Source of the DNA: Lachnospiraceae bacterium
Lineage (GTDB): Bacteria > Bacillota > Clostridia > Lachnospirales > Anaerotignaceae
DNA: 64,000 nt
Assembly (NCBI GenBank): GCA_963633805.1
Contig: CAVGZD010000001.1
Span: forward strand, 48,150-112,149
Direction of reading: 5' to 3'
Shown: piece after piece, positions 15,199 through 37,324 of the stretch
Numbering within the stretch: the stretch's first letter is position 1
Layout: the number at the start of each line of letters is the position of its first letter
Made by a program: the position numbers and the translations under genes
The notes under the pieces: generated by a model
Database searches by the model: none
What the model was told of the DNA's origin: nothing
Seen by the model: only the letters and a program-made list of their open reading frames with translations

Positions 15199-17445
15199 AT
15201 GGATATGGGAGTGGAAGAACAACTGTATCAGGAGTTGATCGCAAAAATAAAAACCTATCATCCATCTGATGACTTTTCCATGATCGATCAGGCGTATCAT
15301 CTGGCGGTGAATGCGCATAAGGATCAAAAAAGAAAATCCGGCGAGCCGTATATTATACATCCGCTGAAGGTGGCGTATATTCTGGCGGAGCTGGAGCTGG
15401 ATATGGAATCTATCACGGCGGGCATTCTGCATGATGTGATCGAGGATACGGAATATACCTATGAGGATATTTGCCGACTTTTCGGCGAGGAGATCGCGCT
15501 TTTGGTGGATGGCGTAACCAAGCTGGGCAAGCTTTCTTATTCCACGAAGGAGGAGGCGCAGGCGGAAAATTACCGCAAAATGTTCCTGGCGATGGCGAAG
15601 GACATTCGCGTTATTTTGATTAAGCTGGCGGACAGACTGCATAATATGCGGACGCTGAATTACATGAAGCCTGAAAAACAGCGGGAAAAGGCGCAGGAAA
15701 CGCTGGATATTTATGCGCCGCTTGCGCACAGGCTGGGTATTTCTAAGATCCGCACGGAGATGGAGGATTTGTGCTTCAAATATCTGAATCCGGATGCCTA
15801 TTTCGATCTGGCGGCGAAAATTCAGAAGAAAAAGGAGGAACGCGACGCCTTCGTGCAGGGGATCGTGCAGGAGCTGCAGCAGAAAATGGTAGAAACCGGC
15901 ATTGAGGGCAAGGTCTACGGCAGAACGAAGCACTTTTTCAGCATTTACAAAAAAATGGTCAACCAAAACAAGACCTTGGATCAGATTTACGACCTCTTTG
16001 CCATCCGCGCGATTGTGGATAACGTAAAGGATTGCTATGGTGTGCTGGGATTGGTGCATACAATGTACACGCCGATGCCGGGGCGTTTCAAGGATTATAT
16101 CGCCATGCCGAAGCCGAATCTGTATCAATCGCTGCATAACACGCTGATCGGTCCGCATGGGCAGGTCTTCGAGGTGCAGATTCGGACCTGGGAGATGCAC
16201 CGCACCAGCGAATACGGTATCGCGGCGCACTGGAAATATAAGGAAGGCAAGGCGAACGATAAGGGGACGAAGGCAAGCAAGCGAGAGGAAGAAAAGCTGG
16301 CTTGGCTGCGCCAGATCATGGAATGGCAGCATGATGTGGTGGATAACAAAGAATATCTGGAAACGCTGAAGCAGGATTTCAATATTTTTTCCACGCAGGT
16401 CTATGCCTTTACGCCGCAGGGCGACGTGATCCAGCTGACGAAGGATTCTACGCCCATCGATTTTGCCTATATGATCCATTCCGCGGTCGGCAACAAAATG
16501 GTCGGTGCGCGGGTCAATAACCGCATCGTTCCGCTGGAATATAAGGTGCAGAACGGCGATATTGTGGAGATCATCACCTCGCAAAATTCCAAGGGACCGA
16601 ATCGGGATTGGCTGAATGTCGTCAAATCTGCGCAGGCGCGAACCAAAATCAAGCAATGGTTCAAGCGGGAGGAAAAGGAGGAGAATATCGTCCGCGGCAG
16701 GGAAATGATTCTGGCTGACATCCGGAAGAAGGGCTTTCAGCCGAGCGATCTGCTGCGCCCGGAATGGGAAGAGATCGTTATCCTCAAATATGATTTCAAG
16801 ACATGGGACGCGCTTCTGGCTGCCATCGGCTACGGCGGCATGAAGGAGGGGCAGGTCGTCAATCGCCTGCGGGACGAATATCTCAAGGAAAAGCGGAAAA
16901 CGCAGACGGCAGAGGATGCGCTGAAGGATTTTGAAAAAACCATCGACCAGAAGCCGATCAAGCAGCAAAAGAGCAAGAGCGGCATTATGGTAAAGGGGAT
17001 CGGCGATGTTGCGGTACGTTTTTCAAAATGCTGCAGCCCTGTGCCGGGGGATGAGATCATCGGCTTCGTGACGCGCGGGCGCGGCGTGACGATCCATCGG
17101 ACGGACTGCGTGAACGTGATCAATCTTTCCGATGAGGAACGCGGGCGATTGATTGAAGCGGAATGGGATGCGCAGTACGCGAAGGGCGATGCGAACGCCT
17201 CCTATCTGGCGGAGGTGCGCGTGACGGCGAACGACCGTGTGGGGCTGATCCTGGAGATCAGCCGCTTTTTGGCGGATGATGATATTTCCGTCAAGGGGCT
17301 GAATGTGCGCACGACGAAGGATATGCTGGCGATTTTCAATATTACGATTGAAATTAAGACGAAGGAACAGCTGGAGCGCGTCGTAAAGCGATTGCAGTCC
17401 CTGAAGGACGTTGTGAGCGTGGAGCGCGTTTCCGGGCTGGGTTAA
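15199..17445 (+). CDS. rel: Bifunctional (p)ppGpp synthetase/hydrolase (long RSH)
   Basis: RKSGEPYIIHP, LHDVIED, KLADRLHNMRT, RFKDYI, YQSLH, TGS, CC and ACT domains. Confidence 0.98.
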   Translation: MDMGVEEQLYQELIAKIKTYHPSDDFSMIDQAYHLAVNAHKDQKRKSGEPYIIHPLKVAYILAELELDMESITAGILHDVIEDTEYTYEDICRLFGEEIALLVDGVTKLGKLSYSTKEEAQAENYRKMFLAMAKDIRVILIKLADRLHNMRTLNYMKPEKQREKAQETLDIYAPLAHRLGISKIRTEMEDLCFKYLNPDAYFDLAAKIQKKKEERDAFVQGIVQELQQKMVETGIEGKVYGRTKHFFSIYKKMVNQNKTLDQIYDLFAIRAIVDNVKDCYGVLGLVHTMYTPMPGRFKDYIAMPKPNLYQSLHNTLIGPHGQVFEVQIRTWEMHRTSEYGIAAHWKYKEGKANDKGTKASKREEEKLAWLRQIMEWQHDVVDNKEYLETLKQDFNIFSTQVYAFTPQGDVIQLTKDSTPIDFAYMIHSAVGNKMVGARVNNRIVPLEYKVQNGDIVEIITSQNSKGPNRDWLNVVKSAQARTKIKQWFKREEKEENIVRGREMILADIRKKGFQPSDLLRPEWEEIVILKYDFKTWDALLAAIGYGGMKEGQVVNRLRDEYLKEKRKTQTAEDALKDFEKTIDQKPIKQQKSKSGIMVKGIGDVAVRFSKCCSPVPGDEIIGFVTRGRGVTIHRTDCVNVINLSDEERGRLIEAEWDAQYAKGDANASYLAEVRVTANDRVGLILEISRFLADDDISVKGLNVRTTKDMLAIFNITIEIKTKEQLERVVKRLQSLKDVVSVERVSGLG

Positions 17446-22200: not shown

Positions 22201-23652
22201 ATGAATTTTCAAATGATTGCCTATGTATTGGGCAGTATTTTGCGTCTGGAGGGGCTGCTGATGCTCGTGCCGACGGTGGTTGCCGTATATTATCAGGAGC
22301 AGACGCCGGCGGTCGCGCTGATTGCATCGGCGACGTTCTGTCTGATAGCTGGTACGGCGATCGGCTGCAAAGAGCCGAGCAATAAACGCATTTATGGCAG
22401 AGAGGGCTTTATCGTGGTGGCGCTTTCATGGATCATGATGTCCATATTCGGCGCATTTCCCTACTATCTGAGCAATTCCATAGAGGGCTATCTGAATTGC
22501 TTTTTTGAAACGGTCTCCGGGCTGACGACCACCGGCTCGACCGTCCTGCAGGGGATCGAGCATCTGCCGCGCAGCATTCTGTTCTGGCGTTGCTTTACGC
22601 ATTGGATCGGTGGCATGGGGATACTGGTGTTCATGCTGGCGATTATGCCGCTGGGGGATGAGCGCACGATGTATCTGATGAAGGCGGAGGCGCCGGGACC
22701 TGTGGTTTCCAAGCTGGTGCCGCGCGTCAAATCCACGGCGAAGATACTATACATGATTTATGTCGCGCTGACGCTGCTGGAGCTGTTTTTGCTGCGGCTG
22801 GGCGGGCTGCCGTGGTATGACAGCATCGTCCACGCGATCTCAACTGCGGGTACGGGCGGCTTTTCCATCTGGAATGACAGCATTGCCGCCTATAACAGCG
22901 ATTATGTGGAATATATCGTCACGCTTTTTATGCTGCTGTTCAGCGTCAACTTCAATCTGTATTATCTGCTGCTGATGCGGGATTTCAAAAACGTGTTCCA
23001 GAATGAGGAGCTGCGGTATTTTGTGGCAATCGTCTGCATCGCAACGCTGCTCATTGCGGTGAATATTTATCATTGCTATGGGACGATCGAGAGCGCGTTC
23101 CGTCATTCTGTCTTCCAAGTGGCGGCTGTGATGAGCACGACGGGCTTTGTAACGGCGGATTTCGATCACTGGCCGGAATTTTCCAAGACGATATTGTTCT
23201 GCCTGATGTATCTGGGGGCTTGCGGCGGCTCTACGGCGGGCGGTATCAAGATTTCCCGCTTTATTATCCTCCTGAAGATGATCAAGCGGGAGGTCAAGCG
23301 GATCGTGCATCCCCGCTCGGTGAATCTGATTAAGCTGGATGGCTGCCGCATTGAGGAGGATGCCGTGCGGAGCGTTTCGGGCTTTCTGGTGATGTATCTG
23401 CTGATCCTGCTCGGCTCGTTTTTGCTGATTTCGCTGAATGATTTCGATTTCGTCACGAATATGACGGCTGTTGTGACCTGTCTGAGCAATGTTGGACCGG
23501 GGCTTGAGATGGCAGGACCGACGGAGGCATTGGCGTTTTTCTCGCCCTTTTCCAAGCTGGTGCTCTGCATGGATATGCTGCTGGGCAGGCTGGAGATTTT
23601 CCCGATTATCATGCTTTTTGCCCCTTCCATCTGGCGCAGGAGCTATATGTAA
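22201..23652 (+). CDS. trkH: Trk potassium uptake membrane subunit
   Basis: FETVSGLTTTG, HWIGGMG, TGGFS, STTGF, GSTAGGIK, SNVGPG, GRLE. Confidence 0.96.
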   Translation: MNFQMIAYVLGSILRLEGLLMLVPTVVAVYYQEQTPAVALIASATFCLIAGTAIGCKEPSNKRIYGREGFIVVALSWIMMSIFGAFPYYLSNSIEGYLNCFFETVSGLTTTGSTVLQGIEHLPRSILFWRCFTHWIGGMGILVFMLAIMPLGDERTMYLMKAEAPGPVVSKLVPRVKSTAKILYMIYVALTLLELFLLRLGGLPWYDSIVHAISTAGTGGFSIWNDSIAAYNSDYVEYIVTLFMLLFSVNFNLYYLLLMRDFKNVFQNEELRYFVAIVCIATLLIAVNIYHCYGTIESAFRHSVFQVAAVMSTTGFVTADFDHWPEFSKTILFCLMYLGACGGSTAGGIKISRFIILLKMIKREVKRIVHPRSVNLIKLDGCRIEEDAVRSVSGFLVMYLLILLGSFLLISLNDFDFVTNMTAVVTCLSNVGPGLEMAGPTEALAFFSPFSKLVLCMDMLLGRLEIFPIIMLFAPSIWRRSYM

Positions 23653-23653
23653 A

Positions 23654-23826
23654 GAGAAAGAAGCGGCTGCGTAAGCAGCCGCTTCTTTGATAGAGGGAGG
23701 GTTATTACTATTTATATCATCCAAAAAATCGGATCATATCTGAATTATATTAGGAAGGGGTGCCTGCGGCGCTTCGGGGAAAGAAGCCGCAGGCGGGAAG
23801 TAAAAGGGGGCGTCCTTTTGACTTCT
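23654..23826 (-). ncRNA. Candidate trans-acting small RNA with C-rich motifs
   Basis: Minus-strand TATACT -10 at 23837-23832, GC-rich hairpins with C-rich loops, further CCCC/CCCUCCC tracts, ends in the terminator shared with trkH; no long ORF. Confidence 0.65.
23657..23688. terminator. Bidirectional terminator after trkH
   Basis: AAAGAAGCGGCTGC-GTAA-GCAGCCGCTTCTTT perfect 14-bp stem. Confidence 0.9.
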
Positions 23827-23943
23827 CGCTTAGTATATAAGATAAATGTGGCTATTCTGTGAACAAAAAATTAAGATTCTCTGATAATAAACGGAAAATT
23901 TGATTATAAAGCTCTCATTTTGCGATAATCGTTGAAATTTGCC

Positions 23944-24048
23944 GCAGGACGCGCCAAAATAAGAAAATATCGAAAAAGTGTAAATCCTTGTTTTGCAGGG
24001 ACTTGCGTTTTTTATTGAAAAATGTCTGTTTTCTTAAGCGGAGTCTGC
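23944..24048 (+). repeat. Full-length copy of the intergenic palindromic repeat family
   Basis: GCGCCAAAATAAGAAAA...GTAAATCCTTGTTTTGCAGGGACTTGC...TGAAAAATGTCTGTTTTCTTAAGCGGAGTCTGC. Confidence 0.75.
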
Positions 24049-24129
24049 GCGGGATGGGGGCTTCTTGGCTGTAGATTTTATATCACGGAAAACCTATCGA
24101 ATTTCTATCAATTATTTTGAAATTTACTC

Positions 24130-24158
24130 TTGCATACCGGAAGAAAGTTCGCTATAAT
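24130..24158 (+). promoter_or_regulatory. SigA promoter of the HD-domain gene
   Basis: TTGCAT-17 bp-TATAAT. Confidence 0.7.
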
Positions 24159-24206
24159 GTACAACAAAATAATGTACAACAAAAAATACGAAAGAAGGAA
24201 TGTACA

Positions 24207-24770
24207 ATGGGAAAGGTTTTGACAAGAGACGAAGCATGGGAACTGTTGCAGGAATACAACAAAGAGCCTTTTCATCTGCGCCATGGCGAGACGGTAGAGG
24301 GCGTAATGCGTTATTTGGCGCAGGAGCTCGGCTATGGCGATGAGGTGGATTTCTGGGGCAATGTCGGTCTGCTGCATGATCTGGATTTTGAGCTTTGGCC
24401 GGAGCAGCACTGCACCAAGGTACAGGAGATCATGAGAGAGAAGGGGCTGGACGAGAGATTGATCCATGCGGTTGCGAGCCACGGCTATGGCATCTGCTGC
24501 GATGTAGAGCCGGAGCATGAGATGGAAAAGGTGCTTTTTGCCGTGGATGAATTGACCGGGCTGATTGGCGCAACGGCATTGATGCGCCCCTCTAAGAGCG
24601 TGAAGGATATGGAAGTGAAGTCCGTGAAGAAAAAATTCAAAGATAAGGGCTTTGCGGCAGGCTGCAGCCGTGACATCATCCGCACAGGCGCAGAACGCCT
24701 TGGTTGGGACTTGGATCAGCTGATCGCATATACGCTGGATGGCATGAAGGCGGACGAGAGAAACGCATAA
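24207..24770 (+). CDS. HD-superfamily hydrolase
   Basis: H...VEGVMR, GLLHDLDFE, HAVASH, AVDELTG; start at ATG 24207 after AAGGA. Confidence 0.88.
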   Translation: MGKVLTRDEAWELLQEYNKEPFHLRHGETVEGVMRYLAQELGYGDEVDFWGNVGLLHDLDFELWPEQHCTKVQEIMREKGLDERLIHAVASHGYGICCDVEPEHEMEKVLFAVDELTGLIGATALMRPSKSVKDMEVKSVKKKFKDKGFAAGCSRDIIRTGAERLGWDLDQLIAYTLDGMKADERNA

Positions 24771-24830
24771 GTAAGATCGAAAAACTACATAAATCATGAA
24801 AAAACAGCTTATCCCTGCATCCGATGCGGT

Positions 24831-24919
24831 GCGCCCAAAGGAGAAAGCCTCGTAAATCCTTGCGGAACAGAGATTTACGAAGTCCGGAATGAAAAATGTC
24901 TGTATTCTTAGGCGGAATC
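24831..24919 (+). repeat. Copy of the repeat family inside a terminator loop
   Basis: GCGCCCAAAG..CGTAAATCCTTG...GATTTACG...TGAAAAATGTCTGTATTCTTAGGCGGAATC, flanked by the stem AAAAAACAGCTTATCCC / GGGACAAGCTGTTTTTT. Confidence 0.75.
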
Positions 24920-24947
24920 AATGTAGGGGACAAGCTGTTTTTTTCTG

Positions 24948-25277
24948 TCAAAAAACCATCTGCACCAGCACCATATACAAAACCGTGCCGCCGAAAATGC
25001 TCAGCATGGTATTCCTGCGCCAAAGATGCAGCAGGGCGGTCACAGCGGAGGCAAGCAGCATCGGCACGCAGCCAGCCGCATTGGCAAAGGAAATGCCCTT
25101 CAGGCAGTAGATGACGAGGGTCGCCATGATCGCCATGGGCAGCACGCGCCCCAGATAGCGGACGACCTCCGGCACATCTCTGCCGCGGAAGATCAGAAAG
25201 GGCAGGGCGCGTTCCGCAACGGTGCAGAGCGCACAGACCGCGATGATGAGTATGGATTGTGTCGTTGAAATTGCCAT
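24948..25277 (-). CDS. azlD: Branched-chain amino acid exporter small subunit
   Basis: RALPFLIF, YLGRVLPMA, HLWRRN...SI..GT..YM. Confidence 0.9.
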   Translation of the reverse strand: MAISTTQSILIIAVCALCTVAERALPFLIFRGRDVPEVVRYLGRVLPMAIMATLVIYCLKGISFANAAGCVPMLLASAVTALLHLWRRNTMLSIFGGTVLYMVLVQMVF

Positions 25278-25278
25278 A

Positions 25279-25983
25279 TCAGTCTTCCCCCTTTTCTTTC
25301 GCCTGCTCCGGTTCGATGCGCCCGCGCAGGATCGTCAGCAGAGCCACCGTGATCAGCAGCGAAGGCAGGATAAAGTTGCTCGGCCCGAACACGATCAGGC
25401 AGACGATGCTCGAGATAAACGCCAGAATCGCGGGCAGGCAATGCGACGCACCCTTAATCTGCTCGATCAGAATGACGATGAACAGCGCGGTCAGGGCGAA
25501 GTCGATCCCCGCGGTGTCAAAGGGGATCAATGTGCCGATGAGTGCGCCCAGAATGCTCAGGATGATCCAGTAGAATGTGGTCAATGCCGCCGTCAGGACA
25601 TATGCCCATTTTTTATTGATATCACTGTCAAAATCATGGGAGCAATGCAGGGAATAATTCTCGTCCGTCAGGGAATAGATCAGGAAATATTTCCATGCGC
25701 CGAAGGAGCGGAATTCCTCGATAAAGGACAGCCCATAGAAGATATGGCGGCTATTGAGCAGCAATGCCATGATCGCGACTGCCGCCAGCGAAACCCCGCC
25801 GGCAAAAAAGCTCACCATCAGATATTGCAAAGAGCCTGCAAACACAAACAGGCTGCATGCGCCCGTCCAGATGAAATTATAGCCAACGCTCTGCATCAGC
25901 ACGCCATAGGCAAGCGCCACAGGGATGTAGCTGATGAGAATCGGGAAGCTATGCCGGAGGGCATAGCGAAACGTTTTGTTCAT
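25279..25983 (-). CDS. azlC: Branched-chain amino acid exporter AzlC
   Basis: FAGSLQY, LLNSRHIFYG, LTDE.Y, GIDFALTALF. Confidence 0.92.
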   Translation of the reverse strand: MNKTFRYALRHSFPILISYIPVALAYGVLMQSVGYNFIWTGACSLFVFAGSLQYLMVSFFAGGVSLAAVAIMALLLNSRHIFYGLSFIEEFRSFGAWKYFLIYSLTDENYSLHCSHDFDSDINKKWAYVLTAALTTFYWIILSILGALIGTLIPFDTAGIDFALTALFIVILIEQIKGASHCLPAILAFISSIVCLIVFGPSNFILPSLLITVALLTILRGRIEPEQAKEKGED

Positions 25984-26002
25984 ATCCTATCACAGATCCT
26001 TT

Positions 26003-27769
26003 CTATTCCGTCCGCATCTGCTTCACCCGATTTTCGTCCGGGGTGATGTAGATAGTTTTGTTCGTCAGATAAATCACCATGCCGGGCTTTGCGCCGTTCG
26101 GCTTTTTCACGTTTTTGCGCTGCGTATAATCCACGGGAACCATGCTGCCGTCCTTCGCCTTGCTGTAGTAGGCGGCGAGATTGGCGGCTTCCTCCATGGT
26201 GGCTTCGGGCAGCTCACTCCTGCCGCCCGTGCGGATGATGACATGAGAGCCGGGGATGTCCTTGGTATGCATCCAGATGTCCGTTGGTTCGGCGGTGCGC
26301 AGGGTCAGCTCATCATTTTGCAGATTGCTCTTGCCGACCAGAATTTCATAGCCATCGGAGGAAATATAGCGCAGGGGCTTGGCTTTTTTCGGCTTCTGTG
26401 CGCCTTTTTTCTGCGGCTGCCTGCGGATGAAGCCGCTTTCGGCAAGCTCCGTACGAATCTCGCGCAGGTCGGCATCCTCCTTGCAATGCTCCAGCGCGTT
26501 GAGCACGCTCTCCAGATAGGCAAGCTCCTCCTCGTTCTGCTTTTCCTGAATTTCCAGCGCGGCGAGGGTGCGCTTTGCCTTGTTGTATTTTGCGAAATAT
26601 TTCTGCGCATTTTCTGCGGGAGTTTTTGCGGGATCAATGGCGATTTCGATTTCTGGCATAGCTTCCTCGTAATAATCAACGGTGCGGAAGGTCGTCACGC
26701 CCTGCGGCACGGCGTAGATATTCGCCGTCAAAAGCTCGCCTTTTTTCTTCCAAAGCTCCATGCCCTTGGTTTCCCGGCGGGTCTTCGCCTGAATCTCCTT
26801 TTTCTTGACGCAGCGCTCGATGTGATTCATCAGGAGCTTACGGATGTCGTACGCCTTCTGGCGCATTTGTGCGGTATTGTCCCGCTCCTGATAAAAGCCC
26901 TCCAAAAGCGTGGAAACACTGGGAAATTCCTTCTTTTCCAATGCGGCAAACTGCGTCATGCGCAGCACTGCGAAATCCACAACGCGATGCTCCTCCCCCT
27001 GATAATAAATAGCGGGGGCATAATCCTCTGCCTTTACCTCCTGCATCAGCGCGGCAAAGGCGGCATAAAGCGCCTCACCCTGCGCAAGGCTTGTCTCCTG
27101 GCAGGCATTGGAGGCATCCAGTCCCGCGCGGGAGCAGATTTCCCCCGCCATCATCGGGCTGATGCCGGTGTAGCTTTGATAGAGAAATTCCTGTAAGCGT
27201 CTGCCCTCCTGCATATGCAGGGAAAAGAGAAAATCAGCCTGCTCCGCGGTCAGGGGATTTTTTTTATCCTGCGCGGGCGGAAAAACGTAGTTTTTTCCGG
27301 GCAGAACCTCGCGGACGGAGCTTTTCTCATGCGTGATGCGCTTGATGGAATCCAGAATTTTGCCGTTTTCATCCGTCAGGATGAGATTGCTGTGCTTACC
27401 CATGATTTCCAGAATCAGATTTTTGCGCGTCAGATCGCCCATTTCGTTTGTTGCTTCGATGCGCAGGATGAGGATGCGCTCGAAATTGGGCTGCAAAATT
27501 TCCACGATCTTGCCCCCGGCGATATGCTTGCGCAGCACCATGCAGAAAAGCGGCGCAGTCATGGGATTTTCGCGGGTCGTTTCCGTCAGATGCATTCTGG
27601 GATGGCTGGAATTTGCCGAAGCCAGCACCCGCTTGACTCCGCCCGCCCCGCGCACGGTAAAACGGATCTCATCGGCTGTCGGCTGATGGATTTTATCGAT
27701 TCTTCCGCCCAAAAGGGCAGCTTTCAGTTCGGCTGCAATGGCAGAAACCGTAATGCCGTCCAATGCCAT
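26003..27769 (-). CDS. rqcH: Ribosome quality control protein RqcH (FbpA/NFACT)
   Basis: MALDG, GRIDKIHQP, ILEIMGKHSNLIL, ENAQKYF.KY.K, VGK.N.QND.LT, IPGSHV, KPG.V.Y. Confidence 0.95.
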   Translation of the reverse strand: MALDGITVSAIAAELKAALLGGRIDKIHQPTADEIRFTVRGAGGVKRVLASANSSHPRMHLTETTRENPMTAPLFCMVLRKHIAGGKIVEILQPNFERILILRIEATNEMGDLTRKNLILEIMGKHSNLILTDENGKILDSIKRITHEKSSVREVLPGKNYVFPPAQDKKNPLTAEQADFLFSLHMQEGRRLQEFLYQSYTGISPMMAGEICSRAGLDASNACQETSLAQGEALYAAFAALMQEVKAEDYAPAIYYQGEEHRVVDFAVLRMTQFAALEKKEFPSVSTLLEGFYQERDNTAQMRQKAYDIRKLLMNHIERCVKKKEIQAKTRRETKGMELWKKKGELLTANIYAVPQGVTTFRTVDYYEEAMPEIEIAIDPAKTPAENAQKYFAKYNKAKRTLAALEIQEKQNEEELAYLESVLNALEHCKEDADLREIRTELAESGFIRRQPQKKGAQKPKKAKPLRYISSDGYEILVGKSNLQNDELTLRTAEPTDIWMHTKDIPGSHVIIRTGGRSELPEATMEEAANLAAYYSKAKDGSMVPVDYTQRKNVKKPNGAKPGMVIYLTNKTIYITPDENRVKQMRTE

Positions 27770-27933
27770 GCAAAGCACCTCCTATTCGTTCGTTAGATGT
27801 TTCTGATTCACTAATATAGCATACTTTGGGCGAAAACACACGCTTTTTTGAACAAAAATACGGTACTATTTGCCGCCATATGCTGAAAAATTAAAATTTG
27901 ATTAGAAATAATGGATACAATCGACGGTTTTCC

Positions 27934-27962
27934 TTGCACTTTCCTTCCGGCTTCTGTATAAT
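27934..27962 (+). promoter_or_regulatory. SigA promoter of yloC-gmk-rpoZ
   Basis: TTGCAC-17 bp-TATAAT. Confidence 0.7.
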
Positions 27963-28006
27963 AAAGCAGCTATTTTGTTTGAATCAGATGAGGAAGGACG
28001 AAGATC

Positions 28007-28894
28007 ATGAGTGCAACGATCAGAAGCATGACCGGCTACGGTCGCGGTGAGCATATCACGCAGGAGCGTAAATTCACCGTGGAGATGCGTGCGGTCAATC
28101 ATCGCTATAATGACATGACGATTAAGCTGCCGCGCAGCCTGGCGGGCTTGGAGGATAAAATTAAAAAGAGAATCATGCAGGATGTGTTCCGCGGCAAAAC
28201 GGATGTTTACGTCAGCTTTGAGAGCTTTTCCGCAGAGGATGTAGAGGTCAGGCTGAATGAAGCCTTGGCGGCGGAATATCTGGAACGGCTGTATTTGCTG
28301 GAGAAGACATTTGCCCTGCGGGGGGCGGATAAGCTGGCACTGGTGGCAAAATTTCCCGATGTGATTACGGTGGAAAAGGCGCAGCAGGAGGAGGAGCTGA
28401 TCTGGGATGCGCTTTCTCCCGCGCTGGATGAGGCTGTGGAGAAATTCGTTGCCATGCGCACGCAGGAGGGCGAAAATCTGAAAAACGACATCCTCAGCAA
28501 GGGGGAGCATATCCGCGAGCTGCTGACGGTGGTCAAGGAGCGCTCACCGCTGGTGGTGCAGGAATATCAGGAAAAGCTGAATAATCGCCTGAAGGAGCTT
28601 TTGGGCGGCGTGGAGATCGATCCGCAGCGTCTGGCGACGGAGGTTGCGGTATTTGCGGATCGCGGCTGCGTGGATGAGGAAATGACTCGTCTGGAAAGCC
28701 ATCTGGGGCAGCTGAGGACGATACTCGAGGGCGGCGGTCAGGTCGGCAGAAAGCTGGATTTTCTGGTGCAGGAGATGAATCGGGAAACCAACACCATCGC
28801 ATCGAAGGCAAATGACCTGACCATCGTGCAGACGACCATCGAAATGAAAAGCGAGATCGAAAAAATCAGAGAACAGGTGCAGAATCTGGAATAA
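28007..28894 (+). CDS. yloC: YicC/YloC family endoribonuclease
   Basis: SMTGYG, VNHRY, GRKLDFL.QEMNRE.NT.ASK, REQVQNLE. Confidence 0.95.
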   Translation: MSATIRSMTGYGRGEHITQERKFTVEMRAVNHRYNDMTIKLPRSLAGLEDKIKKRIMQDVFRGKTDVYVSFESFSAEDVEVRLNEALAAEYLERLYLLEKTFALRGADKLALVAKFPDVITVEKAQQEEELIWDALSPALDEAVEKFVAMRTQEGENLKNDILSKGEHIRELLTVVKERSPLVVQEYQEKLNNRLKELLGGVEIDPQRLATEVAVFADRGCVDEEMTRLESHLGQLRTILEGGGQVGRKLDFLVQEMNRETNTIASKANDLTIVQTTIEMKSEIEKIREQVQNLE

Positions 28895-28924
28895 GTGCCA
28901 GCGGGAAAGAGAAGGGGACAGAAC

Positions 28925-29533
28925 ATGAAAAAACAAGGCATATTATTGATTATTTCCGGGCCATCCGGCTCCGGTAAGGGTACCATCGTGGGAGAGCTTT
29001 GCAAAAACGACGATTTCTCCCTCTCCATTTCCGCAACGACCAGAAGCCCGCGGGAATATGAGAAGGACGGCGTGCATTATTTCTTCCATACGCGGGAAGA
29101 ATTTGAGCAGATGAAGAAACGCGGGGAGCTGCTGGAATGCGCGGAATTTTGCGGAAATTATTACGGCACGCCGCGCAAATATGTTGTGGAGCAGCTTGCG
29201 GCAGGGCGCAATGTCATTTTGGAGATCGAGGTGCAGGGCGCATTGCAGGTCAAGGAAATTTATCCGGACGGCGTTCTGGTGTTTTTGATGCCGCCGAATC
29301 TGGAGGAGCTGGGCAACCGCCTGACCAAGCGCGGAACGGAGGATAAGGAGACGATCAATCGCCGTCTGCGTCGCGCCTTGGAGGAGATGGAGCTGGTGGA
29401 AAAATACGACTATGTTGTTGTGAATGATACGATCGAACAGGCAACGGCGGACATCCTGACCATCGTGCAGGCGGAAAGAATGAAATGCAGCCGGAATAAA
29501 AATATCAAAAAGATTTTCAAAGGAGAGATATAA
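28925..29533 (+). CDS. gmk: Guanylate kinase
   Basis: SGPSGSGKGT, SISATTR.PR, YYGTP, LEIEVQGA. Confidence 0.97.
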   Translation: MKKQGILLIISGPSGSGKGTIVGELCKNDDFSLSISATTRSPREYEKDGVHYFFHTREEFEQMKKRGELLECAEFCGNYYGTPRKYVVEQLAAGRNVILEIEVQGALQVKEIYPDGVLVFLMPPNLEELGNRLTKRGTEDKETINRRLRRALEEMELVEKYDYVVVNDTIEQATADILTIVQAERMKCSRNKNIKKIFKGEI

Positions 29534-29535
29534 TT

Positions 29536-29829
29536 ATGCTGAGACCTTCTTATACGGATTTATTGGATGTTATCACGCAGGATTCCGATGATATTACGAT
29601 CGGCAGCAGATATGCCATCGTCATCGCGGCGGCAAAGCGCGCCAGAGAGCTGGTTGACCACGCAGAGCCGATGGTTCGTACGGCACGGGTGGATAAGCCC
29701 GTTTCCATTGCGGTGCAGGAATTGTACGAGGGGAAGATCAAGGTGCGTCAGGGGCAGCCTGCGCAGGAGGAAGCACCGGATGAGGAAGTGATCCTCTGCG
29801 ACAGCACGGAGGGCATGACAGGGTTCTAA
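29536..29829 (+). CDS. rpoZ: RNA polymerase omega subunit
   Basis: MLRPS, SRY..V..AAKRAR, KPVSIA..EL; follows gmk. Confidence 0.93.
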   Translation: MLRPSYTDLLDVITQDSDDITIGSRYAIVIAAAKRARELVDHAEPMVRTARVDKPVSIAVQELYEGKIKVRQGQPAQEEAPDEEVILCDSTEGMTGF

Positions 29830-29919
29830 GTCGCGCGGTGGCTCTATAGGAAAGATGTTTTAGTCCGTTTTACAAACGGACTTTCTTTTTCGCGGAGAAT
29901 GCGGCGGGGGAGAGTGAAA

Positions 29920-32370
29920 ATGAAGATCGCAAAGGTAATCATCGGGCAGAATCGCCCGGAAATAGACCGCTGCTTTGATTATCGCGTGCCGGAGGGGATG
30001 GCATCCTCCATCGCGGCGGGAACGCGGGTGATCGTGCCCTTCGGCGGCAGAAATGCCAAAACGGAGGGTTGCGTCCTCTCTCTTGCGGAGGATACGGCGG
30101 TTTCTGCGGAGCGGCTCAAGGATATCGCGGAGGTTCTGGATGAGGGCAGACCCGCCTTCACGCCGCAGCTGCTGGCGCTGGCGCAGTGGATGCGGGAGCG
30201 GTATTTCTGTACGCTGAATCAGTGCTTGCAGGCGATCTTGCCCGCGGGCATCCGCAGCAGAAGCAGCTGGATCGTCCGCGCAAAGCAGACAAGCGATGCG
30301 GCAGGGCTTACGCCGAAGGAAAGGGCAGTGCTGCAATTTCTGGCAGACGGCGAGACGCATCCTTTGGAGGAGATCGAAGGGGAATTTCGCGGGAATATGA
30401 TGGAATATCTGCGGAAAATGCAGGATAAGGGGCTGCTGGAGCTGCGGCAGGAGCTGCACCACAGCAACTATCGGCGGGAGCGGCGGTATTATTCTCTGGA
30501 TCTGGCGCATCCGCAGCTGGAAGCGGTCTGGGCGAAGGCGGCGAAGGAGAAGCGGCTGGAGGGACAGCGGCTTTTGCTGGATGCCCTGCGCAACGGGGAG
30601 GAAAAGACCGCCGAGGAACTGAAGGAAGCCCTTGGCATCAGCGATTCTCCCATACAAACGCTGCGGAAAAAAGGCATTTTGATCGAGCACATCCGGACGG
30701 AGCGACGAAGCGTTGTAGATGTGCAGCGCATAGAGCCGATGCAGCCTCTCCCGCCGACGGCAGAACAGGCAAGCGCACTGGTGGCTATCCGTGCGGAGCG
30801 GCAAAAAGACGAAAAACGCCCGATTCTCCTGCATGGCGTAACGGGCAGCGGCAAAACAGAGGTTTATCTGCAAATCATTGCGGATGTTCTGCGGGAGGGC
30901 AGACAGGCGATCGTACTTGTGCCGGAAATTTCGCTCACGCCGCTTCTGGTGGAACGTTTTGCGGCACGCTTTGGCGATGTAGTCAGCGTGACGCACAGCC
31001 ATCTTTCTATGGGTGAACGGGTCGACCAATGGAAACGGGCGCGAGATGGCGAGATTTCAGTCATGATCGGACCGCGCTCCGCGCTGTTTACGCCCTTTCG
31101 GAACATCGGCGCGATCATCATGGACGAGGCGCACGAAAACAGCTATTTTTCGGATATTACGCCGAAATATGATACGAAGGAGGTCGCGGAGGAAGCGGCA
31201 AGGCTCTGCGGCGCACTCTTTCTGATGGGGACGGCGACCCCTGATTTTACGAGCTATCATAAGGCGATGACGGGGCAGTATCTCCTGCTGGAGCTGCGGG
31301 AGCGCACGGGCGGCGGCGCATTGCCGGAGGTTTCCGTGGTGGATTTACGGCGGGAGCTGCAGGATGGGAACCGTTCGCCCTTCAGCCGCGCCCTGCGGGG
31401 GGCGATACGGGAGGCGCTGGCGCGGGGCGAGCAGGCGATGCTTTTCCTGAATCGGCGCGGCACGGCGACTTTCGTTTCCTGCCGAAGCTGCGGCACGGCG
31501 ATGACCTGCCCGCACTGTGATATTGCCTATACCTACCACGGCAGGGAACATGCGCTGGTTTGCCATTACTGCGGCAGACGGGCGGCAGTGCCGCAGGTTT
31601 GTCCTGCCTGCGGCTCAAAATATATCCGCTATTTCGGCACGGGTACGCAGAAAATCGAGGAGGAGGCAAGGCGACTGTTCCCGCAGGCGCGTATCCTGCG
31701 CATGGATCTGGATACGACCGGGACGAAGCACAGCCACGAGAGGATTTTGGAAACCTTTGGCAGGGGCGAAGCGGATATCCTGATCGGGACGCAGATGATC
31801 GCCAAGGGGCACGATTTCCCGCGGGTGACAGTAGTTGGCATCATGGCGGCGGATGCGCTGCTTTTTGCGGGCAGCTACACTGCGGCAGAGACTGGCTTTC
31901 GCCTGATGCTGCAGGTGGCGGGACGCGCGGGACGCGCCGAGCTGCCGGGGCATGTCTTTTTGCAGACCTATCAGCCGAAGCATTATGCCGTGCGCTATGC
32001 GGCGGCGCATGATTTCAAGGGCTTTTATGCGGAGGAAAGCGTACTGCGGCGCATGATGGGCTATCCGCCATTTGCCGCGCTGCTGGGGATTCTGTTGGTC
32101 GGCGAGGAAAAGGAAGCAGTTGCGGCGGAAGCGGAGGAGCTTGCGGCGGCTCTGGAAAAACGCAACACGAGCCAAGCCGTGTCCATATTCGGTCCAACAC
32201 CCGCCGCGCTCGCCAGATTTCGCGGAGAATATCGCTATCAGATCCTATTGAAAGCGGAAAATGAGCAAATCCTGCGGGAGCTGCTGCTGCCTGAGCTTGC
32301 AAGCAGGGGGCAGAATCGGCGGGGAAAGGTGCGCTTACAGGTGGTAATCAATCCGGAGAATATTGTGTAG
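29920..32370 (+). CDS. priA: Primosomal protein N' (replication restart helicase)
   Basis: GVTGSGKTEVY, VPEISLT, LNRRG, four CxxC zinc motifs, GTQMIAKG.DF, QVAGRAGR. Confidence 0.97.
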   Translation: MKIAKVIIGQNRPEIDRCFDYRVPEGMASSIAAGTRVIVPFGGRNAKTEGCVLSLAEDTAVSAERLKDIAEVLDEGRPAFTPQLLALAQWMRERYFCTLNQCLQAILPAGIRSRSSWIVRAKQTSDAAGLTPKERAVLQFLADGETHPLEEIEGEFRGNMMEYLRKMQDKGLLELRQELHHSNYRRERRYYSLDLAHPQLEAVWAKAAKEKRLEGQRLLLDALRNGEEKTAEELKEALGISDSPIQTLRKKGILIEHIRTERRSVVDVQRIEPMQPLPPTAEQASALVAIRAERQKDEKRPILLHGVTGSGKTEVYLQIIADVLREGRQAIVLVPEISLTPLLVERFAARFGDVVSVTHSHLSMGERVDQWKRARDGEISVMIGPRSALFTPFRNIGAIIMDEAHENSYFSDITPKYDTKEVAEEAARLCGALFLMGTATPDFTSYHKAMTGQYLLLELRERTGGGALPEVSVVDLRRELQDGNRSPFSRALRGAIREALARGEQAMLFLNRRGTATFVSCRSCGTAMTCPHCDIAYTYHGREHALVCHYCGRRAAVPQVCPACGSKYIRYFGTGTQKIEEEARRLFPQARILRMDLDTTGTKHSHERILETFGRGEADILIGTQMIAKGHDFPRVTVVGIMAADALLFAGSYTAAETGFRLMLQVAGRAGRAELPGHVFLQTYQPKHYAVRYAAAHDFKGFYAEESVLRRMMGYPPFAALLGILLVGEEKEAVAAEAEELAAALEKRNTSQAVSIFGPTPAALARFRGEYRYQILLKAENEQILRELLLPELASRGQNRRGKVRLQVVINPENIV

Positions 32371-32496
32371 CGCGTGATTTTGTGATATAATTTTCGCGGT
32401 GTGTGCTGTTCTTTTGCGCCACAGCGATTTTACGATAAATTTACAATTTGTTTCGTGTTTGTTCAATTTTTGGAGATAATATAGGAGGAAAGAGCG

Positions 32497-32946
32497 ATGG
32501 CGATTCGGAATATTCGATTGAGTACGGATGAGGTTTTGAGGAAAAAATGCAAGCCGGTCAAGGAGATCACCCCGAATCTCCTGACGCTGCTGGATGATAT
32601 GGCTGACACGATGTATGAAGCCAACGGCGTCGGCTTGGCTGCGCCGCAGGTCGGCATATTGAAGCGGGCGGTGGTAATCGATATTGGCGAGGGTCTGGTG
32701 GAGCTGATCAACCCTGTCATTCTGGAGACAAGCGGCTCGCAGATTGATGACGAGGGCTGCCTGAGCCTGCCGGGGAAATCCGCTCCCGTGGAGCGCCCGA
32801 ATTACGTCAAGGTGCAGGCGATTGATCGGGACGGCAACGAATGCATCATCGAAGGGGAAGAGCTGATGGCGCGCGCGCTTTGCCATGAGATCGACCATCT
32901 GGACGGCATTTTGTATATCGATAAGGCGCTGCCTGAGGAGGAATAA
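32497..32946 (+). CDS. def: Peptide deformylase
   Basis: [23 protein letters not shown]. Confidence 0.98.
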
Positions 32947-32958
32947 GGAGGAAATCCA

Positions 32959-33888
32959 ATGAAAGTGATATTTATGGGTACGCCGGATTTTGCGGTGTAT
33001 TCTTTGAAGGCACTGCTGACGAAGCATGAGGTGGTCGCTGTCGTGACGCAGCCGGATAAGCCCAAGGGCAGAGGGAAAAAATTGCAGCCTACGCCCGTCA
33101 AGGAGCTGGCGATGGAGCATGGCATTGAGGTTTTGCAGCCTGTCAAGGTGCGCGAGGCGGAGGTCATCGAGAAGCTGCGCAGCTACGGTGCGGATCTGAT
33201 TGCCGTGACCGCCTTCGGGCAGATTTTACCGGAGGATATCCTGAATCTGCCGAAATACGGCTGCATCAACGTGCATGGCTCTTTGCTGCCGAAATATCGC
33301 GGCGCAGCGCCCATGCAGCGGGCGATCATCGACGGCGAGACGGTGACGGGCATCACGACGATGTTCATGGCGAAGGGCATGGACACGGGCGATATGCTGC
33401 TCAAGCGTGAGGTGGAAATTCTGCCGACAGATAATTTTGAGGATTTGTACTACAAAATGGCGGAAGCGGGCGCGGAGCTCCTACTGGAAACGATCGACGG
33501 CTTGGAGGCGGGCACGATCGCGCGCATCCCGCAGGACGAGAGCCAAGCGACCTATGCGCCCATGATCTACAAGGAAACGGGGCATATTGACTGGAGCAAG
33601 CCGGGGCGGCAGATCATCGACCTGATGCGGGGGATGTATCCCGGGCACGGCGCGTATGCCGTTTTGGAGGATGAACCTCTGAAGCTATTCTGGGCGGAGC
33701 AGCAGGCGGGTGAGTACCCCGATGCCGCCTATGGCGAGATCGTTGAGGTATCCAAGGCGGATTTTGCGGTCAAATGCGGCGATGGTGCTTTGCGCATCAA
33801 GGAGGTGCAGGCGCGGGGCGGCAAAAAAATGCCGACCGACGCTTATCTGCGGGGACACCGCATGGAAACGGGCATCCGTTTTTCGTAA
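32959..33888 (+). CDS. fmt: Methionyl-tRNA formyltransferase
   Basis: FMGTPDFA, TQPD.P.GRG, NVHGSLLPKYRGAAP, MDTGD. Confidence 0.98.
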   Translation: MKVIFMGTPDFAVYSLKALLTKHEVVAVVTQPDKPKGRGKKLQPTPVKELAMEHGIEVLQPVKVREAEVIEKLRSYGADLIAVTAFGQILPEDILNLPKYGCINVHGSLLPKYRGAAPMQRAIIDGETVTGITTMFMAKGMDTGDMLLKREVEILPTDNFEDLYYKMAEAGAELLLETIDGLEAGTIARIPQDESQATYAPMIYKETGHIDWSKPGRQIIDLMRGMYPGHGAYAVLEDEPLKLFWAEQQAGEYPDAAYGEIVEVSKADFAVKCGDGALRIKEVQARGGKKMPTDAYLRGHRMETGIRFS

Positions 33889-33911
33889 GATAGCATAAGG
33901 AGGAATCCAAT

Positions 33912-34592
33912 ATGTATTTATTAGTAATAATTGCGTTTTTGTTCTCCATGTACGCACAGCTGCAGATCAGCAGCACCTATAATAAATACTCCCGCGTGGC
34001 GAATCGCCGCGGCTATACGGGAGCGCAGGTGGCAACGCTGATGCTGCAAAATGCGGGCATTTATGATGTAAAGGTGCAGCGGATCGCGGGGCAGCTGACG
34101 GATCATTATGACCCCCGTACAAAGACACTGCGGCTGTCGCAGGGCGTGTATGACAGTACGTCTGTTGCGGCGCTGGGCGTTGCCGCGCATGAAACAGGTC
34201 ATGCCATCCAGGATGATGTTTCCTACGCGCCTTTGGTGCTGCGCAGCCTGTTTGTGCCGATCGCAAATTTTGGCTCGAAGCTCTCCTGGCCGCTGATCGT
34301 GATCGGTCTGCTTTTTAACGGGCATACGGGGACGACGCTGCTAATGCTGGGCGTGCTGTTCTTCTCTCTGTCCGTGGTGTTTACGCTGATTACGCTGCCG
34401 GTGGAGTTTGACGCATCCTCGCGGGCGATCACGCTGCTGGTTGACCAGAATTTTCTGGACAGCGATGAGATCGGCGGCGCGAAAAAGGTGTTGCGGGCAG
34501 CCGCGATGACCTATGTGGCGGCGGCTTTTGCGGCAATCGCACAGCTTTTGCGACTGCTGGCGATCATCGGCTTCAGACGGGGCAATGATTAA
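33912..34592 (+). CDS. Membrane zinc metallopeptidase (YugP-like)
   Basis: LTDHYDP, AAHETGHA.Q, TLPVEFDAS.RA, AAAMTYVA. Confidence 0.92.
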   Translation: MYLLVIIAFLFSMYAQLQISSTYNKYSRVANRRGYTGAQVATLMLQNAGIYDVKVQRIAGQLTDHYDPRTKTLRLSQGVYDSTSVAALGVAAHETGHAIQDDVSYAPLVLRSLFVPIANFGSKLSWPLIVIGLLFNGHTGTTLLMLGVLFFSLSVVFTLITLPVEFDASSRAITLLVDQNFLDSDEIGGAKKVLRAAAMTYVAAAFAAIAQLLRLLAIIGFRRGND

Positions 34593-34733
34593 ATAGAAGG
34601 AAAAAGGGCTGATTCCCGAAAATGATTTGGGAATTGGCCTTTTCGTCGTTTTATATCGACGGGCGCGGAATGAGGGATTTTGGCGAAAAATGTGCGCTTT
34701 TGCGCCGTGCATCGGCAGAAATCAGAATTTTCC

Positions 34734-34762
34734 TTGAACAATCGCCTATTCTATCGTATAAT
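34734..34762 (+). promoter_or_regulatory. SigA promoter upstream of rsmB
   Basis: TTGAAC-17 bp-TATAAT. Confidence 0.6.
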
Positions 34763-34880
34763 AATAATTTGATGATACCCCGATCGGGGTCTGGTTTAGG
34801 CGCTTTGGTGCAAAATTCCGACAAATTTCGTGGTTCTGTGTGCATCCGAAGCGGAAAGAAAAACGGAAGGAATTGAAACG

Positions 34881-36224
34881 ATGATTCAAATCAATCCCAG
34901 AGAAATTGCGGCGGAAGCCCTCATGGAGATCATGACGGACGAAGCCTATAATACCATGACGCTGCGCCGCCTGCTGCGGCAAAACGGCGCGATGAGTCGT
35001 CAGGATCGTGCCTTCGTGACGGAGATGGTCAACGGGACACTGCGCAACCTGCTGTATATCGATCATGCACTGAATGTTTTCGCGCGGGGGACGAGCACGG
35101 AGAAAATGAAGCCGTGGATATTGGCGTTGCTGCGGACGGCAGTTTATCAGATGTATTTTATGGAGATTCCCGCGCATGCGGCGATCGATGAGGCAGTGAA
35201 GCTGACGAAGCAGCGGGGCTATACTGCCCTGAAGGGCTTTGTCAACGGCATTTTGCGCACGGCGGCGAAGGAGCGGGACAATATCCCTTTGCCCGATGCG
35301 GGGACGGCGGAATATCTCTCCCTGCGCTATTCCCACCCGCTCTGGCTGGTGCGGATGTGGATTGCTTACTATGGCTACGCGGATACGGAGCAGCTTTGCG
35401 CCTATGATAATCAGCCGCCCGATGTGACGATTCGCGTCAATACACTGAAAACGGACGTGCAGACGCTGCGGGAGCGGCTGGAGCAGGCGGGCGTGGAGGT
35501 CGGCGCGGGGCGCATCTGCAAAAATGCCCTGCATCTGAGCAAAACCGCTGATTTGAGCCGTTTGGATCTGTTTCGGGAGGGCTTGTTTCATGTGCAGGAT
35601 GAAAGCTCCCAGCTTGCGGTGGAGATTCTGGGCCCGCAAAAGGGCGAGCAGATCCTTGATCTTTGCGCTGCGCCCGGCGGCAAGAGCTTTACGGCGGCGG
35701 AGAAAATGGAAAATGACGGGAAATTGCTTTCCTGCGATATATATGAGCATAAGCTGGAACTATTGGAGGAGGGCGCAGAGCGGCTCGGTATTCGTTGCAT
35801 GGAATGCGCCCTGTGCGATGCGGCTGAGGAGCAGAGCGGCGAGCTGTTCGACCGCGTGCTGGTGGATGTGCCCTGCTCCGGCTTGGGCTTGATGCGGAAA
35901 AAGCCGGATATTCGCCTAAAGAAAAACGGCGATGAAATCGACAGCCTGATTCCGCTTCAGCGCAGGATATTGGACAATGCGGCGGGCTATGTGAAGCTGG
36001 GCGGCGTGCTGGTATACAGCACCTGCACCATCTGCCGCAAGGAGAATGAAAAAAATCTGGAATGGTTTTTGCAGCAGCATCCCGAATTTGAAGCGGAGGA
36101 TATCACGCCCTTTTTGCCGCAGGATTGGGATGCGGAAACGGCGCGGCAGGGCTATCTGACCCTTCTGCCCCACAAAACCGGGACGGACGGCTTTTTTGTC
36201 TCCCGCATGAGAAGGAAGGGTTGA
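34881..36224 (+). CDS. rsmB: 16S rRNA m5C967 methyltransferase
   Basis: NusB-like N-terminus, QDESS, DLCAAPGGK, DVPCSGLG, VYSTCT, DGFF. Confidence 0.96.
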   Translation: MIQINPREIAAEALMEIMTDEAYNTMTLRRLLRQNGAMSRQDRAFVTEMVNGTLRNLLYIDHALNVFARGTSTEKMKPWILALLRTAVYQMYFMEIPAHAAIDEAVKLTKQRGYTALKGFVNGILRTAAKERDNIPLPDAGTAEYLSLRYSHPLWLVRMWIAYYGYADTEQLCAYDNQPPDVTIRVNTLKTDVQTLRERLEQAGVEVGAGRICKNALHLSKTADLSRLDLFREGLFHVQDESSQLAVEILGPQKGEQILDLCAAPGGKSFTAAEKMENDGKLLSCDIYEHKLELLEEGAERLGIRCMECALCDAAEEQSGELFDRVLVDVPCSGLGLMRKKPDIRLKKNGDEIDSLIPLQRRILDNAAGYVKLGGVLVYSTCTICRKENEKNLEWFLQQHPEFEAEDITPFLPQDWDAETARQGYLTLLPHKTGTDGFFVSRMRRKG

Positions 36225-36226
36225 GC

Positions 36227-37276
36227 ATGGGAAAAACGGATTTGAAATCGATGAATCTGCAGGAGATGGAGGCATTTCTGGTCGGGCTGGGCGAGCCGAA
36301 ATTCCGCGCAAAGCAGCTCTTTGACTGGGTTCATGCCAAGCAGGTGGACAGCTTCGCAGAAATGACGAATCTTTCCAAGGCGCTGCGGGAAAAGCTGGAG
36401 CGGGAAGCGAGGCTCGGTGGCGTGGAGATCGTCAGGCGGTTGGTCTCGCAGGAGGACGGCACGAGAAAGTACCTCTTTGCGTTGGAAAACGGCTCGGTAA
36501 TCGAAAGCGTGCTGATGAAATATGAGCATGGCAACACGGTTTGCATCTCCACGCAGGCGGGTTGTCGCATGGGCTGCAAATTCTGCGCCTCGACGCTGGA
36601 TGGCGTGGAGCGCAGCCTGACGGCGGGTGAAATGCTCTCGCAGGTTTATGCCATACAGAAGGATTGCGGGGAGCGCGTCCACGGCGTTGTGCTGATGGGC
36701 AGCGGCGAACCGCTGGATAATTATGAAAATGTACTGAAATTTTTGCGCTTGATCAACGACCCCAAGGGGCAGAACATGGGACAGCGGCATATCACGCTTT
36801 CGACCTGTGGACTTGTGGATAAAATATACGATCTGGCGGAGGAGGGGCTGCAAATCACGCTGGCTGTCTCCCTCCATGCGCCAAATGATGAGATCCGCGC
36901 GCAGACCATGCCGATCGCCAAGGCATACGACATGGATAGCCTGCTGGCGGCTTGCCGTGCCTATGCGGAGCGGACGAAGCGGCGCATCACCTTTGAATAT
37001 GCCATGATCCATGGGCTGAATGACAGCGACGAGAACGCGCGGGAGCTGGCGGGTAGGCTGCGCCATAGCCTTTGCCACGTCAATCTGATTCCCGTCAATC
37101 CCGTCAAGGAGCGGGCATATGAGAGAAGCGGCGAGGATCGGATCCGGCGCTTTGCGGATATATTGGAGAAAAACGGGATAGAAACGACCGTCAGGCGGCG
37201 GCTGGGCAGCGATATTGCTGCAGCCTGCGGGCAGCTCAGAAGAAGCCATAGACAGGAAATGACGGAAAAGGCTTGA
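36227..37276 (+). CDS. rlmN: Dual-specificity RNA m2A methyltransferase (radical SAM)
   Basis: CISTQAGCRMGCKFCAS, MGSGEP, SLHA, DIAAACGQL. Confidence 0.97.
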   Translation: MGKTDLKSMNLQEMEAFLVGLGEPKFRAKQLFDWVHAKQVDSFAEMTNLSKALREKLEREARLGGVEIVRRLVSQEDGTRKYLFALENGSVIESVLMKYEHGNTVCISTQAGCRMGCKFCASTLDGVERSLTAGEMLSQVYAIQKDCGERVHGVVLMGSGEPLDNYENVLKFLRLINDPKGQNMGQRHITLSTCGLVDKIYDLAEEGLQITLAVSLHAPNDEIRAQTMPIAKAYDMDSLLAACRAYAERTKRRITFEYAMIHGLNDSDENARELAGRLRHSLCHVNLIPVNPVKERAYERSGEDRIRRFADILEKNGIETTVRRRLGSDIAAACGQLRRSHRQEMTEKA

Positions 37277-37324
37277 GAAATGGTTTGTTTGGTTTGTGCA
37301 GTGCAATGAAGGAGGTGGCGCTGC

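Follow-up and report, generated by a model that had tools for sequence, protein, structure and literature searches.

When a stretch of DNA between two annotated genes carries a promoter, hairpins and a terminator, the question is whether it yields an RNA of its own, what would switch that RNA on and what it could do. Such a stretch lies within the window analysed here (64,000 nucleotides of a Lachnospiraceae genome), where an earlier note, made from the letters alone, had proposed an unannotated RNA convergent with trkH, with four seed regions for pairing with ribosome-binding sites. Here we follow this proposal through the surrounding family of genomes. The earlier reading missed two things, a regulator box that the RNA has in common with htrA and a form of the RNA in deeper genera that bears an open reading frame (ORF).

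A predicted RNA with C-rich stretches beside trkH

All the elements that had been listed for the RNA (the -10, hairpins 1 and 2, ACCCCUUCC, the AU-rich stem, ACCCUCCC and the terminator) are found on the minus strand, from 23837 down to 23651 (Table 1). What holds up of the proposal is an unannotated RNA that is conserved, terminates independently, exposes several C-rich stretches and matches no Rfam family. The AU-rich stem is not supported as a functional element, being private to this genome; the spacer between seeds 3 and 4 in which it sits ranges from 23 to 119 nt, is 74% AU and mostly folds weakly. The RNA folds better than expected, with z = -8.1 for the 191 nt that include the terminator and z = -6.0 for the 135 nt without it, none of 200 shuffles being as good in either case. 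All four C-rich stretches are predicted to be exposed (the C runs are unpaired with p 0.86–1.0), with the exception that two of the five Cs in seed 1 take part in the stem. The RNA is single-copy, the next match in the genome having an E-value of 0.03, and paralogues with the same promoter, which the earlier note had thought worth looking for, are absent from this genome. Its statement that there is no ORF of 60 aa or more was incorrect: a 294-codon TTG-initiated frame runs from 23724 antisense through trkH and overlaps the 3′ end of the RNA, and we read it as a shadow frame.

Table 1 Features of the RNA locus and related features of the window.
Feature	Position	Strand	Remarks
rel (RelA/SpoT)	15205..17445	+	Pfam; seed 1 duplex ranks 2 of 1757
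trkH, potassium uptake gene	22201..23652	+	Convergent neighbour; NCBIfam TIGR00933, 314 bits against a cut-off of 331
Predicted RNA	23651..23826	-	About 175 nt; start placed from the -10 (±2), end from the terminator
Intrinsic terminator hairpin	23651..23688 (stem 23688-23657)		Flanked by A-run and U-run in homologues
Seed 4, single-stranded ACCCUCCC	23692..23702	-	C-run present in 46/54 ORF-less loci
AU-rich spacer	23703..23752	-	Not conserved; deeper genera have the small ORF here
AU-rich stem	about 23741-23714	-	Inside the spacer; this genome only
Seed 3, single-stranded ACCCCUUCC	23753..23761	-	Predicted unpaired; from the alignment
Hairpin 2, CCCC loop = seed 2	23762..23794	-	Covarying stem
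Hairpin 1, loop ACGCCC = seed 1	23797..23825	-	Near-invariant sequence in ORF-less copies
-10 hexamer TATACT	23832..23837	-	9 bp from the last repeat; invariant in 24/24 loci
Regulator box	23847..23886	-	Four direct-repeat units, 11-bp period; two distal TTAAG-like, two proximal TTCAYA-like

The RNA faces the convergent pair trkA-trkH; upstream, on the opposite strand, is an HD-type gene. Its terminator, the U-tail of which touches the trkH stop codon (23652), is probably bidirectional and common to both. A special link with trkH is not supported, the neighbour being a different one in genera g10 and g12. Some 19 kb (23900-42800 of the window), holding the HD gene, azlCD, rqcH, yicC and gmk-, rpoZ- and priA-like genes, lie between the RNA and lepA, which adjoins the RNA in most relatives. 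A generic promoter and terminator scan picked up neither the RNA promoter nor the RNA terminator, because the former has no canonical -35 and the latter a short U-tail.

Distribution and conservation within the family

BLAST located the element in 21 of the 22 other genomes of the same genus and in two more genera. Across the 113 genomes of the Anaerotignum-like family that made up our set, a covariance model built from 19 sequences detected one strong copy each in 55, namely in the genome itself, g1 (21/22), g10 (15/15), g12 (2/2), g43 (15/15) and g42 (1/1), with no match in the other 18 genera of the family. A broader RNA model added g44 (10/10) and g9 (4/4) and missed g2, g11 and g45; its matches are sequence-only, because the model lost all base pairs. 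An exact pattern occurred at 48 loci of a species-level genome set, 26 under Anaerotignum titles and four under other names, most of the remaining ones being titled Clostridia, Lachnospiraceae or Bacillota.

The C-rich loops to which the earlier note had drawn attention are conserved, both C-loop hairpins being kept in the covariance model and the alignments. Over 38 sequences, 94.2% of cells were paired, with 80 two-sided changes as against 22.7 in shuffled and 7–18 in slid controls, counts that are inflated by the relatedness of the sequences. Ten of the 11 pairs of hairpin 2 show two-sided changes in this set. None of the 11 pairs of hairpin 1 does, because its sequence hardly varies (five pairs never vary, and 97.6% of cells are paired). 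Among individual copies, that of G092 (L086) has neither seed 3 nor an obvious terminator, and in three g1 copies (L027-L029) seed 4 is missing and the 3′ end differs. The Rfam check proposed for the locus gave no known family: neither the window region nor any of 14 homologue or analogue loci and six class-level loci scored close to a gathering threshold. The RsaE/RoxS, RNAIII and 6C covariance models gave no match, the best hits in Rfam reaching 25–26 bits, far below gathering scores.

A promoter box common to the RNA and htrA

Direct repeats at an 11-bp period in place of a -35 are the usual form of an OmpR-family activator site. About 60 bp upstream of the RNA align gap-free (in 24 loci, and likewise in 55), and four such repeats replace the -35. 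A matrix made from the RNA promoters alone scored 45.6 bits at its own site, 22.5 at the htrA promoter and 2.5 at the next site in the genome; the second site precedes the gene for HtrA (Trypsin_2 plus PDZ), with the same spacing to the -10 as at the RNA. A joint pattern matched in 104 of the 113 family genomes, at 216 sites versus 6 for the reversed control; it was written from both promoter sets, RNA and htrA, so that only the specificity of the pattern and the RNA-only matrix scan are independent. The 55 genomes of g1, g10, g12 and g43 hold 98 box sites (two in each of 43 genomes and a single one in the other 12, as against 0 in the control), 97 of which fall at the RNA or htrA when their coordinates are counted by hand. 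This points to htrA and the RNA as a two-gene regulon in these four ORF-less genera.

In deeper genera the box stands before further genes. In g44 (L158, L161) it drives an ORF of about 40 codons, basic with a hydrophobic end and followed by a terminator, a second small protein of the regulon. Other box-bearing genes there (L157, L160, L159, L167, L171, L172, L178, L182, L186, L190, L192) have products such as an M23/PcsB-type peptidoglycan hydrolase (Pfam) and an ABC ATPase operon as well as, named by eye, a surface protein and a carboxypeptidase-like gene.

The form of the box and its distribution make it very probable that one OmpR-family response regulator activates the RNA and htrA together. 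The genome has 10 OmpR-type domains, and a LisR-like regulator on contig C54, as we take it to be, is not the syntenic candidate. That candidate comes from other families, where the order mutS2, response regulator, histidine kinase, box, htrA is found in four of six long regions; the response regulators of mutS2-htrA regions are 62–70% identical to a protein on contig C109, versus 46–49% for the next ones of the genome. The C109 gene follows a gene that we call mutS2-like by likeness; it is not adjacent to htrA in its own genome, and in four family genomes its orthologue stands some 1.6 kb ahead of htrA. Orthologues occur in 108 of the 113 family genomes, including those without an exact box. 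Going by guilt by association, the regulator of the RNA and htrA is probably this response regulator. In L320, a pspA-like gene (named by eye) stands inside the mutS2-regulator-kinase-htrA cluster. In other Firmicutes, passages of PMC12826053 assign the control of HtrA to CiaRH, CssRS or LisRK.

ORF-bearing relatives and the ancestry of the RNA

The additional box sites in genera that the first covariance model had missed proved to mark the same element, in a layout comprising the same promoter, two C-loop hairpins, a C-run, an ORF of 45–85 codons, further C-rich tracts and a terminator. In the small proteins a common acidic-hydrophobic motif at the N terminus is followed by a basic middle part, and the end is hydrophobic or amphipathic. 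Differences by codon position number 401/216/784, and pN/pS in a 14-codon core is 0.24 (16 sequences), a figure biased low as the core was picked by motif. These values suggest that the RNA of the deeper genera encodes a conserved small protein, translation itself being putative. The protein family is new: no Pfam family is common to 11 members, the 29 database matches are all uncharacterised or hypothetical, and the Atlas matches, below 0.9, are leads only.

An ORF profile matched in g42, g2, g11 and g45 (1/1 each), g9 (4/4) and g44 (8/10), and in none of the genomes of g1 (0/22), g10 (0/15) and g12 (0/2); the one hit in g43 (1/15) is a marginal unrelated match on another contig (E 0.006). 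The genome of the window gave no match to the profile at E up to 10, and no conserved small ORF was seen at the ORF-less loci among the rows listed. Single loci deviate from the common layout: the hairpins are missing from G109, where ORF and promoter are present, the 5′ part of G023 is altered, and L168 (G103) carries an insertion of about 150 nt between the hairpins and an intact small ORF. In g44, L152 (G096) and the copy of G094 keep the hairpins and 3′ tracts, the ORF being degenerate (L152) or missed by the profile, and a second, independent loss of the ORF is possibly under way in these two genomes.

In ORF-bearing and ORF-less forms alike the locus is linked with lepA or spoIIP-lepA, g9 and most g10 loci excepted; in the genome of the window lepA, 19 kb upstream, keeps the same divergent orientation. 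In an HtrA tree of 45 chosen genomes (a single gene, midpoint-rooted), the 24 that belong to ORF-less genera fall together on one 100/100 branch, flanked on both deeper sides by ORF-bearing genera. With the ORF-less copies nested as one clade, the AU-rich spacer takes up the former place of the ORF. Judged from these alignments and the tree, it is quite likely that the ancestral transcript additionally coded for a small basic/hydrophobic protein, which disappeared once, in the ancestor of the four genera. The loss of sgrT from Yersinia SgrS, described in passages of PMC4021124 and PMC12612679, is a precedent for such an ORF loss.

Box-driven units outside the family

Across the order, the joint pattern was found in 57 of 151 genomes, versus 8 control hits. 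Beyond the family, the box stands in front of htrA, ABC ATPases, small lipoprotein-like ORFs and efflux-like genes (19 + 20 loci, among them several further sites that we read as chance). At five loci from three other families of the same order (L300, L310, L315, L318, L326) it is followed by a short ORF-less unit with C-rich tracts and a terminator-like hairpin, and at a sixth, from one more family (L363), by a shorter unit; the six are possible analogous small RNAs (sRNAs). In genus g139 of another order, a distinct ORF-less RNA of about 130 nt stands behind the same box, after a nagB-like gene, in five of seven genomes (L364-L368), and has C-rich sequence in a hairpin loop, a single strand and the terminator loop, an LhrC-like layout. 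In three g139 genomes htrA follows a kinase, with a degenerate box that scores above all 200 shuffles; the site in G381 is weak. The box-driven units outside the family have no Rfam match. Class-wide, a pattern with a required C-run occurred in 10 of 401 genomes, which shows existence and not enrichment because the pattern selects for the C-run. In one distant genome the box stands before a clpB-like gene (L372, named by eye).

Proposed function and alternative explanations

All four exposed stretches show complementarity to G-rich Shine-Dalgarno sequences, and GGGG occurs in 350 of 1757 predicted gene starts. The target prediction that had been suggested was run on these starts with home-made gene calls and duplex energies without accessibility, and turned out unspecific. 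Envelope-like proteins were 11–12 of the top 40 targets versus a base rate of 20.5%, the best of eight tests giving p = 0.014 uncorrected, so that the predicted targets show no significant envelope enrichment among the 1757 starts. Within these, htrA ranked 964–1551 and the C109 regulator 240–595. For rel, pairing with seed 1 reached -20 to -26.6 kcal/mol in 8/8 g1 genomes, -10 to -20 in g10 and -14 to -16 in g43, and needs hairpin 1 (-9.3) to be opened; we regard rel as a weak candidate target of seed 1, in g1 only. Sporulation-like genes of G000 (spoIIAB, spmA/B, spoIIIAB and yabP, named by eye) have G-rich ribosome-binding sites and high seed ranks. A CAU, which could serve as an anti-start codon of the kind that csRNAs combine with an unpaired anti-Shine-Dalgarno stretch, stands 4–10 nt ahead of seed 4 in 15 of the 42 spacers that are distinct (shuffle mean 4.7, maximum 12; kin are not independent) and is absent from the window copy.

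We consider the RNA to be a single-copy trans-acting sRNA of an envelope or secretion-stress response, of anti-Shine-Dalgarno type and derived from a coding transcript, a reading to which we give a probability of about 64%. Under envelope stress, an OmpR-family regulator would switch on the RNA and htrA together. The redundant C-rich seeds would then pair with G-rich ribosome-binding sites and lower translation, probably without Hfq, which leaves fewer new proteins to handle while HtrA clears misfolded ones; that the RNA covers such sites in this way is likely. The ancestral transcript would have held a small ORF between 5′ and 3′ C-rich regions, and with the single loss of the ORF the sRNA would have been left.

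The best-surviving alternative accepts the RNA and its coregulation with htrA but has it bind a protein or sponge another RNA, with no pairing to mRNA starts. The sequence of hairpin 1 is kept in both stem strands, as in a protein site, the duplex prediction offers no convincing conserved mRNA target, and Hfq was not found in the genome, which is 89.75% complete. Set against this are the complementarity of all four exposed stretches to Shine-Dalgarno sequences, the unrelated RNAs that this box precedes in other families, which also end in C-rich tracts and a terminator, and the Hfq-free function of LhrC described in part of PMC4132741. On balance we think this alternative unlikely.

Another regulator or signal, for example PhoP-type phosphate starvation or potassium, is more doubtful still. 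The TTCACA-like units recall what we take to be Pho boxes, and trkAH adjoins the RNA. The RNA neighbour differs in g10 and g12, however, the box outside the family stands mostly before htrA and other envelope or export genes, and the promoter of a pstS-like operon scores -6.5 bits with the RNA-promoter matrix, as compared with 22.5 for htrA. The Pho-box idea was ruled out on this score. We give marginally less credit to the hairpins being remnants of the cis-acting 5′ leader of a lost small-protein gene, with no role in trans. They are indeed the 5′ leader of the ORF in the deeper genera, yet after its loss hairpins, seed 4, terminator and promoter were kept across four genera while the spacer drifts, and hairpin 1 is better conserved in ORF-less than in ORF-bearing copies. 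That the element is a cis-antisense RNA or the mere terminator region of trkH, with which it is convergent and has the terminator in common in g1 and g43, is very improbable, as the overlap is the terminator only, other neighbours are found in g10, g12, g9 and g44, and the RNA has its own conserved promoter.

Novelty and significance

The RNA appears to be a new family of a known kind, unusual in its traceable coding ancestor and its two-gene regulon. A literature search found no description of this RNA or regulon; an earlier computational listing in the alignments of PMC8040213 is possible. The table of that human-microbiome catalogue of structured RNAs has two Anaerotignum rows, with unrelated gene contexts, and PMC13750123 contains no passage with Lachnospira terms. 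According to passages of PMC12612679, deciding which of the two functions is older, or which one disappeared, calls for sequence data on further dual-function RNAs. The ORF-bearing and ORF-less forms at an orthologous locus, the latter in a nested clade, bear on which function was lost; if our reading is true, the tree would show which way the change between the coding and the non-coding form went. For envelope stress in gut Clostridia, the locus further provides a precisely defined regulator box, a candidate two-component system and a regulon of very few genes. Going by record titles, the RNA occurs in cultured Anaerotignum species, and the proposal is therefore testable.

Comparison with known systems

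The closest parallels are the csRNAs of streptococci and LhrC of Listeria. Passages of PMC3091779 and PMC12826053 describe csRNAs as driven by the OmpR-family system CiaRH, which also drives htrA, from a direct repeat close to the -10, and as having unpaired anti-Shine-Dalgarno stretches, the pairing of which with ribosome-binding sites is proposed (PMC3091779). The distal box units of many homologues of our RNA are likewise TTAAG with an 11-bp period. The CiaR box as given there, however, is NTTAAG-N5-TTTAAG 10 bp before the -10, whereas here a TTCAYA-type pair stands next to the -10 and the TTAAG-like units 22 bp further upstream; the CiaR recognition helix (PMC3091779) also differs, by eye, from those of the C109 candidate and the other OmpR proteins of the genome that were compared. 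Where csRNAs come in 2–6 copies, the RNA here is single-copy, with four repeats, four seeds, ORF-bearing relatives and no Rfam match, and no csRNA nonamer is conserved in its alignments. LhrC, in the account of PMC4132741, is induced by envelope stress via a two-component system linked to htrA, has redundant CU-rich sites, is Hfq-independent and has been shown to act on ribosome-binding sites. Redundant C-rich sites in loop and single strand are found here too, but the terminator loop of LhrC1-5 (LisRK regulon) is CU-rich in that account and the one here is not C-rich, and LhrC is multicopy, in contrast to a single-copy RNA with two seed hairpins and no sequence or Rfam match.

For the ancestral form, the parallels are SgrS/SgrT, RNAIII and VR-RNA, in which a small ORF and putative pairing regions share one transcript and the ORF is lost in some lineages. 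Here, by contrast, C-rich regions flank the ORF on its 5′ and 3′ sides and the protein family is new; and compared with the loss of sgrT in Yersinia, the loss maps to one branch that covers four genera. The window copy is not dual-function, as judged from its sequence, while its deeper relatives may be. The two-component control of htrA by CssRS in Bacillus subtilis is similar, and the CssR box TTTTCACA (PMC6749698) resembles the proximal unit of the box here; the regulon as set out in passages of PMC6749698 includes no small RNA, and here there is one. 6C RNA and RsaE/RoxS also use C-rich loops or motifs on mRNAs, and differ in phylum or regulator as well as in the lack of an Rfam match here.

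The widest interpretation would make this an undescribed clostridial counterpart of CiaR and the csRNAs, in which one box couples htrA to unrelated C-rich anti-Shine-Dalgarno RNAs across orders and, in this family, a dual-function ancestor had its membrane protein deleted once, which left a pure four-seed sRNA in a two-gene regulon; we advance it tentatively, at slightly under even odds. For the RNA itself, the best reading is that it would work like csRNAs and LhrC while belonging to neither family.
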